Source of the DNA: a virus
Taxonomy: Duplodnaviria > Heunggongvirae > Uroviricota > Caudoviricetes
IMG/VR virus record: IMGVR_UViG_3300025000_000056
DNA length: 50,465 bases
Strand: one strand, 5' to 3'
This document shows, piece after piece, positions 20,766 to 41,660 of this stretch (position 1 is the stretch's first letter; the number at the start of each line of letters is the position of its first letter). The position numbers were made by a program, and so were the translations under genes. The notes beneath the pieces are model-generated. The model saw nothing but the letters and a program-made list of their open reading frames with translations, was not told where the DNA came from and ran no database searches.

Positions 20766-21194
20766 TTAGAAAGAGCCTGTAATTTCAGCCTTCTTGACTT
20801 TATACTCCGTACGATTCGCTTCGACCGATTGATTCAATTGATCAAAGTAAGAAGAGTACCAGTCATTAAGGCTTAGGGTCACTTCATGATTCATGACAGT
20901 CTCTTTGAAGTGATCATAGAATGCCTGCTCATCCATGGTTAATTCTTCGCCACTGTCCTTCTTAAAGAAGATCTTAGCTAGGAAGAAGAGACCAAACTCC
21001 AGAGCTGATAAGGCTGGATAGGGGTTAATATTCTTTGAATAGATATCAAAGAGTATAGACTTAACTTGCTCTCGTTCGATCACGGTCATCGCATTATAGT
21101 CCGCTTTCGTGATCAAGTTATTCTTAAGTTTATAAGTCAACGAATCAAGAACTTGTTGTTCATCAGAGATTAAAGAGAAGGTTTCTTTTGCCAT
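20766..21194 (-). CDS. Hypothetical helical protein (probable start ATG 21194), possibly a tail-fibre assembly chaperone
   Basis: AAGGAG RBS upstream of ATG 21194. Charged, helical composition. Sits directly after the adhesin cassette. Function is inference only. Confidence 0.6.
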   Translation of the reverse strand: MAKETFSLISDEQQVLDSLTYKLKNNLITKADYNAMTVIEREQVKSILFDIYSKNINPYPALSALEFGLFFLAKIFFKKDSGEELTMDEQAFYDHFKETVMNHEVTLSLNDWYSSYFDQLNQSVEANRTEYKVKKAEITGSF

Positions 21195-21207
21195 GTGATT
21201 CACTCCT

Positions 21208-39231: not shown

Positions 39232-40047
39232 TTAGTGTACATCGATTGCATTAGGTTTTGAGGATTCAATAAAGCGTTCATTCCATTTACTATCTTGGTT
39301 TGTAGCTAATGCTAGTCTGCCATTAATGGCAAAGCTCGTGATTTGGTAATCATAGATTGTCTCAGAGATACTCATAATGATTTCGTTGATCTCATTAATA
39401 ACAATCGACTCGCCCGGCATTCGAGAGTTAATATAATCTCGAATTAATTGCTTAGCCTGAATTGTTATGATCTTTTTCGTAGCATCATCGGTTCCTTTAG
39501 TAAAGATAATCATAGCCTTAAACTCTATAGGAATCGTCTTGGGAATAAAGACGGCGAATCGTATACCGTATCCTTTAACTTCATTGATCTTAGATTGAAC
39601 TTCATTAATGGTTTCCTGACTTGTATTAGGGGTATCGGTAATAATATAAATTGAGAAAGACCCAGTACCGAATGTATAGGGTTTTAATATAACATTCTTA
39701 ACAAGATCCACTGAAAGAGCTGCAAGTCGTATCGCTGTTTCGTTTGCCGAGGCAATCGTTAAAACTTGATTGCAAACTCTATATTTGTAATTGTCATCCG
39801 ATTCACCCGTTATACGAGGACAACTAAGCATGAAACCAATCAGATCAATATTACCTTCCGTTGCTTGAGAGATACAGGCCTGAGCTAAATTAAGACTAAA
39901 GATACTATAAAACTCTGATAAGTTTTCATTCATAATAGCAAGGAGTAATCGTGCAACGCCGCCTGGCCCTATCTCAGTAATTGAAGTACCACTGAGACGT
40001 TCCATAGTCTGAGTCATTAGCTCATCTAAAGACTTTGTAATGATCAT
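39232..40047 (-). CDS. Baseplate J-like (gp47/gp6-related) protein, 271 aa
   Basis: GGVARLLL...QATEGNIDLIG...PRITGESDDNYKYRV...ASANETAI...V.P...GTGSFSIYI pattern of Baseplate_J. Lies directly after a gp25/W-like gene. Confidence 0.8.
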   Translation of the reverse strand: MIITKSLDELMTQTMERLSGTSITEIGPGGVARLLLAIMNENLSEFYSIFSLNLAQACISQATEGNIDLIGFMLSCPRITGESDDNYKYRVCNQVLTIASANETAIRLAALSVDLVKNVILKPYTFGTGSFSIYIITDTPNTSQETINEVQSKINEVKGYGIRFAVFIPKTIPIEFKAMIIFTKGTDDATKKIITIQAKQLIRDYINSRMPGESIVINEINEIIMSISETIYDYQITSFAINGRLALATNQDSKWNERFIESSKPNAIDVH

Positions 40048-40049
40048 GC

Positions 40050-40463
40050 TTATACCTCCTTAATCTTAATGCCGTTACCAAGATCCACGGCTACTTCAAA
40101 ACCAATAGGGCCATTATCACTAAAGGGTGAATTAATAAAGACGAAGTAGACAATGCGCGTACCATTAATAGGAGTTGCCTTGATATAGAGGTCGTCTTTA
40201 TTAATAAATCCATCGGTTGTCATGGCTTTAGTTAAGAGGTCAATTCCCTTATCACCAGTCTCTTTAGTATTAGATAAACCTAGAAGCTGTTCAAGCGTAG
40301 CTCCAATTTTATCGTAAAACCAGTCTTTATTAATAGAGCGAATTCTATTATAAGCGCTCTGTTTGATCATCTCAGTTTCCGTGACGAGACCGAGATCGCC
40401 ATTGACTAAAACTAGATCACCATCAGGACTTAACTTTAAATCCGTTACATCGTAGCGAGACAT
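40050..40463 (-). CDS. Baseplate wedge/sheath initiator, gp25/gpW/DUF2634-like, 137 aa
   Basis: DLKLSPDGDLVLVNGDL...Q...R......W......GA.L pattern. Lies between PAAR and baseplate J. GGAGGG RBS overlaps the PAAR gene end. Confidence 0.75.
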   Translation of the reverse strand: MSRYDVTDLKLSPDGDLVLVNGDLGLVTETEMIKQSAYNRIRSINKDWFYDKIGATLEQLLGLSNTKETGDKGIDLLTKAMTTDGFINKDDLYIKATPINGTRIVYFVFINSPFSDNGPIGFEVAVDLGNGIKIKEV

Positions 40464-40466
40464 ATC

Positions 40467-40817
40467 TCACCCTCCTACAAAGAATTTACTGGAACCGGTT
40501 ATCATAATTCCAGTTCCAGGATAAATATCGACCTTGTCGCCAATGCGAGCGATAGCTTGTCCTTGTACAAAGAACTTAGAACTACCATGTGTATTAACAT
40601 AATCTGATCCACTACAGGGATCTGTCGATGGCCCACCGTCTGTAACGCGAGCTACCGCTTTACCTGAGATAAAGAATTTAGAACTACCTTTGGTTTGAGT
40701 ACCGGTTACATCATGGCCGCCACACGGGCACCAAGAGTCACCTCATGAATGACCGTGTCCATTATGATGAGGAACATGACCGCTCATCTTATCGCTAACA
40801 CATATTGCACCTGGCAT
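40467..40817 (-). CDS. PAAR-domain spike-tip protein (gp5.4-like), 116 codons with in-frame TGA at codon 25; candidate selenoprotein; absent from ORF track
   Basis: AGGGGTGA RBS (40823-40830), ATG 40817. Translation MPGAICVSDKMSGHVPHHNGHGHS*GDSWCPCGGHDVTGTQTKGSSKFFISGKAVARVTDGGPSTDPCSGSDYVNTHGSSKFFVQGQAIARIGDKVDIYPGTGIMITGSSKFFVGG. Three GSSKFF repeats and AVARVTD/AIARIGD PAAR-like motifs. Fills the gap between spike and gp25-like genes exactly. Confidence 0.85.
40704..40742 (-). promoter_or_regulatory. Putative bacterial SECIS element immediately 3' of the in-frame UGA (40743-40745)
   Basis: GGUGACUCUUGGUGCC-CGUGU-GGCGGCCAUGAUGUAACC folds by hand into a 14-bp interrupted stem. The 5-nt apical loop follows a 16-nt spacer after the UGA and has G at position 2 followed by U. 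24 of 39 nt are G/C in an AT-rich region. Confidence 0.6.
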
Positions 40818-40828
40818 AGATATCACCC

Positions 40829-41269
40829 CTAATCAAAATCATATCGATTGGCTCTACCTGTAATCTTGTCCGCTTTAAAGTTTATGGTCGTTCCGGCCGT
40901 TAGGTTAATAGATTTCTTAGCGTTGATAAAGACATTAATTGCATTTAATGTCCATGGCCCTTTAACATCTGTAATAGAGAAATCACTAATCCAGCTATGG
41001 AGATCACCAATGTGTTCCTTCATGTGAGAAGCAATTACGTTAATACTCTTCTTATTTGGATCAATTCGAAGTCCATTATCCGTACCGCCAAAGATATCAA
41101 TGCAGCCGTTATCTCTAATCTTCATCATAGACGTATTGTTCGGATGAACCCAGCCACATTCTGCCTGTTCATAATTAGGTGCCGATGATAGAACGGCCGC
41201 CTTATCAAAGTCCTGGTTAAGGGCTTTTAATCGTTGATCTAAACTTGCTTCATTATCGCCACCAAGCAT
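40829..41269 (-). CDS. Baseplate spike C-terminal/beta-helix-like protein (gp5/gpV-like), 146 aa
   Basis: HPNNTSMMKIRDNGCIDIF...GLRIDP and short beta repeats (INAKKSINLTAGTTINFKADKI). Directly upstream of PAAR. GAGGTGA RBS. Confidence 0.65.
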   Translation of the reverse strand: MLGGDNEASLDQRLKALNQDFDKAAVLSSAPNYEQAECGWVHPNNTSMMKIRDNGCIDIFGGTDNGLRIDPNKKSINVIASHMKEHIGDLHSWISDFSITDVKGPWTLNAINVFINAKKSINLTAGTTINFKADKITGRANRYDFD

Positions 41270-41282
41270 TTACTATCACCTC

Positions 41283-41648
41283 TTAAGTTTTTCCATCGAT
41301 AATATCTGGAACGTAGGCTCCCTTACGTTCATGTTTCATACGTGCAGTCCGAACGTTTGATTCGTAGGATTCTTCAACTAATCCTACGACCTTAGGCATC
41401 ATAGGATTACCGTTAGAAAATTCTAACCAGACAGTATCTCCAGGGAATGGACCGGAGGTACTTGATCCTCCGGTCAAAGCAACCGAAACACCGGCTTTTG
41501 TCATCTTGATATTGTTGTCTTCCCACTCAACGATTGCTCGATTATTAAGATGATCGTAAAAGACAATACGACCTTTCGTTGAGTGCTTACGTTTCTTAAA
41601 TTCCGGAGCTAAGACTTTCTCATAGATAGCCTTGTGTAATTCACTCAT
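41283..41648 (-). CDS. Spike N-terminal OB-fold-like protein (gp5/gpV N-domain), ~121 aa (probable start ATG 41648)
   Basis: KGRIVFYD....AIVEW...PFPGDTVWLEFSNGNPMMPKVVG matches the gp5/VgrG OB-fold P..GD.V.V.F..G....P.I.G pattern. AAGGAG RBS. Confidence 0.7.
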   Translation of the reverse strand: MSELHKAIYEKVLAPEFKKRKHSTKGRIVFYDHLNNRAIVEWEDNNIKMTKAGVSVALTGGSSTSGPFPGDTVWLEFSNGNPMMPKVVGLVEESYESNVRTARMKHERKGAYVPDIIDGKT

Positions 41649-41660
41649 AAGCACAACTCC

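Follow-up and report, generated by a model that had tools for sequence, protein, structure and literature searches.

The window analysed here, a 50,465-nucleotide stretch of DNA, belongs to an uncultured, 0305phi8-36-like groundwater phage and carries a PAAR spike-tip gene whose reading frame is interrupted by a single in-frame TGA at codon 25. We think it likely that this UGA is decoded in a programmed manner, because a UGA interrupts one and the same short loop in two distant phages whose genes show no other lesion, and in one of them the hairpin that follows is selected at synonymous sites. As to the amino acid inserted, we lean, with modest confidence, toward selenocysteine (Sec): the in-frame UGA of the PAAR gene would be read by the SelB and tRNA-Sec of the host, probably guided by a stem-loop.

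A PAAR gene with one internal TGA

The minus-strand frame that runs from 40817 to 40467 comprises 116 residues followed by a stop; its sole internal TGA is codon 25 (40743–40745, minus strand), a candidate Sec or Trp readthrough codon with the surroundings ...HNGHGHS*GDSWCPCGGH (the asterisk marks the TGA). Read through this codon, the protein passes the curated cut-off of PF05488 (E 1.8e-15; 57.4 bits against a cut-off of 27) with three matching stretches, and a match to phrog_281 covers residues 1–115. Codon usage fits that of the phage (0.176 before the TGA and 0.061 after it, compared with -0.16 in the other two frames), and an SD-like (Shine-Dalgarno-like) site at 40821–40832 on the minus strand overlaps the stop of the upstream spike ORF. 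These observations confirm what the initial annotation had proposed, namely a gap-filling PAAR frame with its own RBS and a TGA at codon 25.

The gap lies in a contractile-tail baseplate operon, between a two-ORF spike and the gp25-like and J-like wedge genes, all on the minus strand. The split spike likely has its N-terminal half in the ORF at 41283–41654, whose syntenic counterpart in 0305phi8-36 is gp148 (annotated as P2 gpV-like), and its C-terminal, beta-helix half in the upstream ORF at 40829–41269 (syntenic with gp149; phrog_37848). Downstream are the gp25-like baseplate wedge gene (40050–40463), a homolog of 0305phi8-36 gp150, and the baseplate J-like gene (39232–40047; PF04865). The hub, wedge and spike genes of the phage are homologous or syntenic to those of Bacillus phage 0305phi8-36, KLEB27-3, Edson/WH1 and Moorella phage MTATph1. 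Sequence and context alike mark the gene as a PAAR, and its subfamily departs from the canonical His/Cys set.

The terminal TGA of the PAAR gene (40467–40469) is in frame with the gp25-like gene at 40463 (TGA GAT ATG), and readthrough at this point would give a 255-residue fusion; no SECIS-like hairpin accompanies the terminal TGA. Elsewhere in the window, a listed 145-aa ORF (20766–21203, minus strand) probably starts later, at an ATG behind an SD-like site (MAKETF...), and has no Pfam or PHROG match.

The TGA in assemblies and in the genetic code

An internal stop of this kind could reflect an assembly error, genome-wide reassignment of TGA, or a split gene expressed by re-initiation or frameshift; we hold this group of explanations to be highly improbable. 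Codon 25 reads TGA, with no other letter, in four of four Logan assemblies (X1–X4) of one groundwater study at a depth of 118–291, each of which has one contig across the site; these are contigs rather than reads, and they may be the window's own source. The agreement of four deep assemblies argues that the TGA is genuine, and this holds at the level of contigs rather than raw reads, which is the point that an assembly error retains in its favour. In a second study, a sediment run (X5) yielded a contig with 0 differences over 40736–41050; it is weak support, its TGA lying just 8–10 nt from the contig end. In the gp25-like gene (40050–40463) the X5 strain differs from the window at 8 listed sites, 7 of them third codon positions, and the flanking contigs are identical, a pattern that suggests a mosaic or a mixed population. 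A minor X4 contig across the 3' end of the PAAR gene carries 12 differences in 155 nt. There was no RNA dataset among the listed holders of the window sequence.

TGA terminates 3 of the 24 other long ORFs of the window, and these ORFs carry 218 TGG in 15,339 codons; TGA is therefore not reassigned genome-wide (table 11), and the earlier description of TGA as a normal stop elsewhere in this DNA holds. Unbroken ORFs reach 2945 aa. Similarly, on the second phage contig described below (G001), TGA ends 8 of 75 long ORFs, TGG occurs 553 times, and none of the 11 tRNAs has a UCA anticodon or reads UGA. Genome-wide use of code 4/25 was rejected on the TGA stops and TGG counts of both.

Two features could speak for a split gene: the PAAR terminal TGA shares its frame with the gene that follows, and the internal TGA belongs to an SD-like sequence, TGAGGTGA (40738–40745, minus strand; -12.1 kcal/mol), equal in strength to real RBSs. 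Yet no in-frame start lies at SD distance after the internal TGA, and a restart would lose H17, H18 and H21. Codons 26–60 hold no standard start codon, the sole alternative being ATC at codon 50, in agreement with the initial statement that the PAAR core cannot be made by re-initiation. All that follows the SD-like sequence is an out-of-frame ORF of 6–7 codons.

Codon 25 lies in a variable loop outside the conserved His/Cys set

An exhaustive phmmer search with the window protein returned 88 proteins at E <= 0.001 and 12 at <= 1e-10. The top proteins form a small subfamily characterized by G-x-V-x-H-H-x-G-H, a loop of 1–36 residues, C-x-G-H-x-V-x-G and a later (D/C)-x-C. All six residues conserved in the subfamily, H17, H18, H21, C32, H35 and C68 (spanning 40614–40769, minus strand; putative metal ligands by their conservation), are present in the window protein without codon 25, which therefore lies outside the conserved His/Cys set. 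The canonical tip metal site of three His and one Cys is absent: at the columns of the hairpin-2 His pair and the hairpin-3 Cys the window protein has T65, S71 and I98, where 119, 117 and 117 of 120 homologs carry the canonical residue. The hairpin tips of T4 gp5.4 coordinate iron through three His and one Cys (PMC12407873), and by analogy the six conserved residues may bind metal here. The initial annotation had placed Sec at or near a metal-binding position; this part of the proposal is not supported, codon 25 not being among the putative ligands.

Codons 22–31 (40725–40754, minus strand) make up the variable tip loop between the conserved HHxGH and CxGH. An AF2 model of the window protein (85-row alignment, Trp at position 25) is all-beta, with a mean pLDDT of 94 and a pTM of 0.84, and residues 22–25 and 28–31 form a beta-hairpin in it (pLDDT 75 over residues 21–30); single-sequence AF2, with a pLDDT of 38, was unusable. 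The model predicts that codon 25 is the end of strand 22–25, on a projecting hairpin that also holds His23 and an extra Cys, Cys30, nearby. From the predicted strand register, residues 23, 25, 28 and 30 would share one face of this hairpin. PDB 4jiw chain D is a weak match of the window protein.

To ask what aligns with codon 25 we used 13 TGA-less members with the motif (P0330 was dropped as a cluster-mate of P0253, and six rows without the motif were left out), a sample biased toward TGA-less forms because protein databases cannot hold read-through ones. Counted forward from the conserved His (H21+4), the 11 members with a long enough loop have Trp (4), Tyr (4), Lys, Gly and Thr, and none has Cys; counted back from C32 (C32-7), Cys occurs in 1 of 10. 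At the *GD of the window protein, P0244 has WGD, and TGG to TGA is one transition. A pair of Cys occurs in the loop of the best TGA-less match, P0243, and one of them is spaced like codon 25, at 7 residues ahead of the conserved Cys; in the more distant P0256 one Cys aligns with codon 25. As aligned, the residues favour an origin of codon 25 from Trp. With Trp or Tyr in 8 of 11 relatives and Cys in 0 of 11, the expectation that Sec here replaces a conserved Cys is not supported, and the usual mark of a selenoprotein, Cys in the homologs, is missing for the window PAAR. The homolog check called for at the outset, for Cys or TGA at codon 25, thus gave mostly Trp or Tyr in place of Cys and did give a TGA, in the same loop at a different codon (L040, below).

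These residues lend weight to Trp readthrough, which we consider unlikely. According to this explanation a TGG of the tip loop became TGA and is decoded at a low rate by near-cognate tRNA-Trp, perhaps with the aid of the hairpin, so as to throttle a one-per-virion protein in a highly expressed structural operon. Besides the Trp and Tyr at H21+4 and the WGD of P0244, it can draw on the overall confidence of the AF2 model built with Trp25, and UGA may be leaky to Trp in Bacillus subtilis. Readthrough of UGA is known in phage Q-beta (PMC8310308).

A second phage with a TGA in the same loop

Scanning DNA with a pattern built on the N-terminal motif led to two real subfamily genes, L107 and L040; true matches in the pattern scans were 1 of 6 viral loci, 1 of 62 genome loci and, with L040 turning up again, 1 of 22 viral loci. 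L107, in a plasmid record of Paenibacillus sp. EC2-1 (G002), is an intact subfamily PAAR with no internal stop, and the 0305phi8-36-like baseplate operon that surrounds it on G002:C2 suggests that this record holds a plasmid prophage. In L040, from a 137-kb IMG/VR phage contig (G001), codon 27 is an in-frame TGA; it, too, falls in the variable tip loop, and the conserved Cys follows it directly. Both genes occupy the same slot, between the spike and wedge genes.

L040 is the best match of the window protein (48% identity, 113 bits; the next best scores 105), yet the two proteins are not grouped as a clade, and the structural proteins of G001 and the window phage share 26–52% identity. An internal stop is thus found in two of the three subfamily genes seen as DNA (the window gene and L040, not L107); both are TGA, both lie in the 6–10-residue tip loop, and the sequence downstream is intact in each. 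The different loop positions and the lack of a clade indicate convergence rather than one conserved codon. At the site of the L040 TGA (C-1), 8 of 13 TGA-less members have Tyr, which is in keeping with Trp readthrough, and 0 of 13 have Trp, which is not; Cys is likewise found in 0 of 13. In addition, exactly one extra loop Cys is present in both TGA carriers (Cys30 in the window protein, Cys23 in L040), whereas among 14 TGA-less members one has it (post hoc Fisher test, p 0.025), and Trp readthrough leaves this lone Cys unexplained.

A third gene is probably of the same kind. P0254 is sister to the L040 protein (68% identity, support 99/99) and occurs on contigs of up to 21.8 kb as an 81-aa call that starts where the post-TGA ORF of L040 starts, from which we take it to be a probable further TGA carrier; its DNA was not found among the viral contigs.

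Genes for anaerobic NrdD/NrdG on G001 indicate that its host is anaerobic or facultative; the ribonucleotide reductase NrdD (G001:C1:112420–115806, minus strand; 1128 aa) carries an intein C-terminal motif. The same contig has a second in-frame TGA (57705) that joins stretches of 175 and 405 codons of one glycine-rich tail-region protein (G001:C1:57180–58925, plus strand; L112:17180–18925). The protein reads GWYGGGGGYT*GSSGGGG at the TGA, has no match among cultured phages, and shares the TGA-GGT context of the window, a likeness that could be counted for Trp readthrough. The hairpin of this gene passes the bSECIS model described below and is not above chance (112 of 1000 synonymous recodings). 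The terminal TGA of L040 is out of frame with the next gene.

Close homologs of the window protein were found in neither viral nor genome contigs, and two matching metagenome-contig loci were, on reading, chance WCPCGGHD matches. Neither tblastn against cultured phages at 1e-5 nor a word-indexed protein search gave a close homolog; relaxed tblastn gave distant PAARs only, and the exact protein is absent from a collection of 15 billion proteins. The variable loop was absent from all PAARs recovered by profile searches, 120 of them canonical and 120 of the Dulem-34 type. Genome searches around G002 yielded 1 of 401 (class), 1 of 116 (genus) and, with a looser profile, 7 of 401 (phylum, no stops), with the subfamily in G002 only.

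Several relatives lack the gene. No PAAR was present within the fetched flanks of 29 syntenic loci (L009–L037), the full records G003, G004 and W01 gave no match whatever, and 0305phi8-36, MTATph1, Edson and KLEB27-3 have no PAAR at the window slot. Such absences would suit a pseudogene: a recent TGG-to-TGA nonsense mutation would have knocked out a spike-tip gene that the lineage can do without, and the TGAs of the other carriers would have separate origins. T4 gp5.4 is indeed dispensable for assembly (PMC12407873). Even so, T4 without gp5.4 is disadvantaged about 1.55-fold per cycle (PMC12407873), X1–X4 show the TGA as fixed at their depth of 118–291, and two of three DNA-level subfamily genes share the stop type and the short loop and have no other lesion. 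We regard a pseudogene as quite improbable.

Hairpins downstream of the UGA

A 14-pair stem-loop is predicted directly after the UGA of the window gene (40704–40742, minus strand; -13.0 kcal/mol), with an apical loop, CGUGU, 16 nt after the UGA. In our own implementation of the published bSECIS model (PMC13188914, Fig. 2 legend; loop distance 16–37 nt) it satisfies all four constraints, including the G-U in the loop. The SECIS-like hairpin of the initial annotation therefore exists and fits the model, but it is not above chance: among 1000 synonymous recodings of the peptide, 443 satisfy the model (298 its strict form) and 269 are as stable, and against dinucleotide shuffles z is +0.57. The background of the model is 16 of 217 TGG codons (5 strict), 23 of 500 random codons and 46 of 300 GC-matched positions (26 strict). 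The stem-loop is compatible with a SECIS and is no evidence on its own; that it does not exceed chance counts for a pseudogene. Rfam gave two chance matches only on the window (E 6–9).

A second and stronger hairpin of 10 bp (40489–40519, minus strand; -15.3 kcal/mol) lies near the 3' end of the PAAR gene, in its last codons, where 1 of 200 synonymous recodings is as stable. It is situated about 12 nt upstream of the RBS of the next gene and is possibly a control element for the wedge genes.

The hairpin of L040 is highly non-random. A perfect 10-bp stem starts 5 nt after the UGA and carries a GUUA loop 15 nt after it (-19.6 kcal/mol), and 0 of 1000 synonymous recodings are as stable. This hairpin is selected at synonymous sites, which is at odds with a pseudogene; its apical loop is the G-U loop of a bSECIS, which is at odds with Trp readthrough. 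No L040-like hairpin is present over codons 11–69 of the TGA-less L107. Among 21 readthrough-candidate TGAs of G001, two pass the SECIS-like test and the L040 hairpin is the stronger, compared with 8 of 200 TGG controls that pass and 0 of 200 that reach -13. These passes depend on a range widened post hoc, the loops of L040 and of the G971 gene described below standing 15 nt from the UGA, one below the 16–37 of the model. A significant hairpin is also present near codons 87–99 of L040 (0–2 of 150).

A tip TGA in the PAAR gene of G971, a genome with SelB

We searched PF05488 in 401 genomes from the phylum of a Desulfovibrio genome and obtained 33 matches in 25 genomes. Internal stops occur in just two of the 33, one TGA (in G971) and one TAA (in the PAAR match G951:C77:8497–8643), a scarcity in an unrelated phylum sample that argues against the pseudogene. 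The G971 gene is a canonical PAAR with its TGA in the hairpin-2 tip, a different loop from that of the window gene. The TGA stands in a column that holds Cys in 48 of 120 canonical homologs, and the genome bears a SelB above the cut-off (393.6 bits); both points count against Trp readthrough. The stem after this TGA has, at a distance of 15 nt, a loop that begins with G, and this hairpin is not above chance (91–132 of 500 synonymous recodings over 30–45 nt). G002, which carries the TGA-less PAAR, has no SelB above the cut-off.

Selenocysteine as the preferred reading

An early reading of the site, as a simple Trp nonsense mutation, was lowered once L040 was found. The TGA and hairpin in the same loop of L040, together with the tip TGA of G971, make a one-off nonsense mutation unlikely. 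We prefer Sec because of the G-U-loop hairpins, the SelB-bearing host of the G971 case and the lone extra loop Cys of both carriers. The idea of Sec in the spike tip thereby gains a second subfamily TGA in the same loop with a highly non-random hairpin and a TGA-bearing PAAR in a SelB-bearing genome, and it loses the replaced Cys and the conserved ligand.

Under the Sec reading, host SelB and tRNA-Sec would decode the UGA at codon 25, probably guided by the directly downstream stem-loop, and the outcome would be one selenium atom per virion, on the predicted projecting hairpin of the spike tip. The Sec would be an extra, lineage-specific residue outside the six conserved His and Cys. Its probable partner would be the single extra Cys of the loop (Cys30 in the window protein, Cys23 in L040), joined as a Se–S staple or through an extra metal contact, and either could stiffen the tip in an anaerobic, Sec-using host. 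We propose that low efficiency of Sec insertion would be tolerable because one PAAR per particle suffices. Pairs of SelB and SECIS can be specific to a lineage. Concerning the host, a tail relative infects Moorella thermoacetica, a Sec user listed in Table 4 of PMC1794560, and Sec use is concentrated in Clostridia and Deltaproteobacteria (PMC1794560).

We treat the gene as a candidate rather than an established selenoprotein, since its relatives lack a conserved Cys counterpart and the SelABCD of its host is putative. More tentatively still, phages of Sec-using anaerobes may have recruited Sec repeatedly and independently into the tip loops of PAAR caps, at positions without an ancestral Cys (here possibly from a Trp codon). 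If so, selenium would be structural in the membrane-piercing point of the virion and assembly of the tip would be tied to the selenium supply of the host.

Relation to known systems

A full-text literature search (open-licence PMC and bioRxiv) found no bacteriophage selenoprotein in print. In the available text of PMC8310308 the virus cases named are poxviruses only, and the main text of a 2026 review of prokaryotic selenoproteomes nowhere contains the words "phage", "virus" or "viral". Sec in a virion structural protein, if true, would extend selenoproteins beyond redox enzymes and make phage fitness dependent on host Sel genes; such genes would also be silently missed by gene callers. If Trp readthrough were the case, it would be an unusual way to set the amount of a one-copy virion protein.

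Among PAAR spike-tip proteins (PF05488, phrog_281, T4 gp5.4; PMC12407873) the window gene shares the three-repeat PAAR sequence and a placement as one small gene flanked by the spike and gp25-like wedge genes, and its predicted fold may be shared as well. It differs from canonical PAARs by T65, S71 and I98, by HHxGH-[variable loop]-CxGH with (D/C)xC, and by the in-frame UGA in that loop.

With bacterial selenoprotein genes, in which an in-ORF SECIS is read by SelB (PMC13188914, Fig. 2), it has in common an in-frame UGA, an immediate predicted stem-loop that is compatible with a SECIS, an apical loop starting with G-U and a TGA that is otherwise a stop. Unlike those genes it would encode a phage structural protein and not a host redox enzyme, it has no conserved Cys homolog position, and its UGA lies at differing positions of the same loop across phages.

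The selenoproteins of poxviruses (glutathione peroxidases of molluscum contagiosum and fowlpox; PMC8310308) are alike in that a virus gene relies on the Sec machinery of the host. They differ as captured host enzymes of eukaryotic viruses, with a eukaryotic SECIS and no structural part in the virion. The coat gene of Q-beta (PMC8310308) is, like the PAAR gene, a phage structural gene with a UGA, which in Q-beta is read through at a low level. There, readthrough adds a C-terminal extension to a functional protein, whereas the 24-residue product that ends at the UGA of the PAAR gene lacks an obvious role, and any function depends on readthrough.
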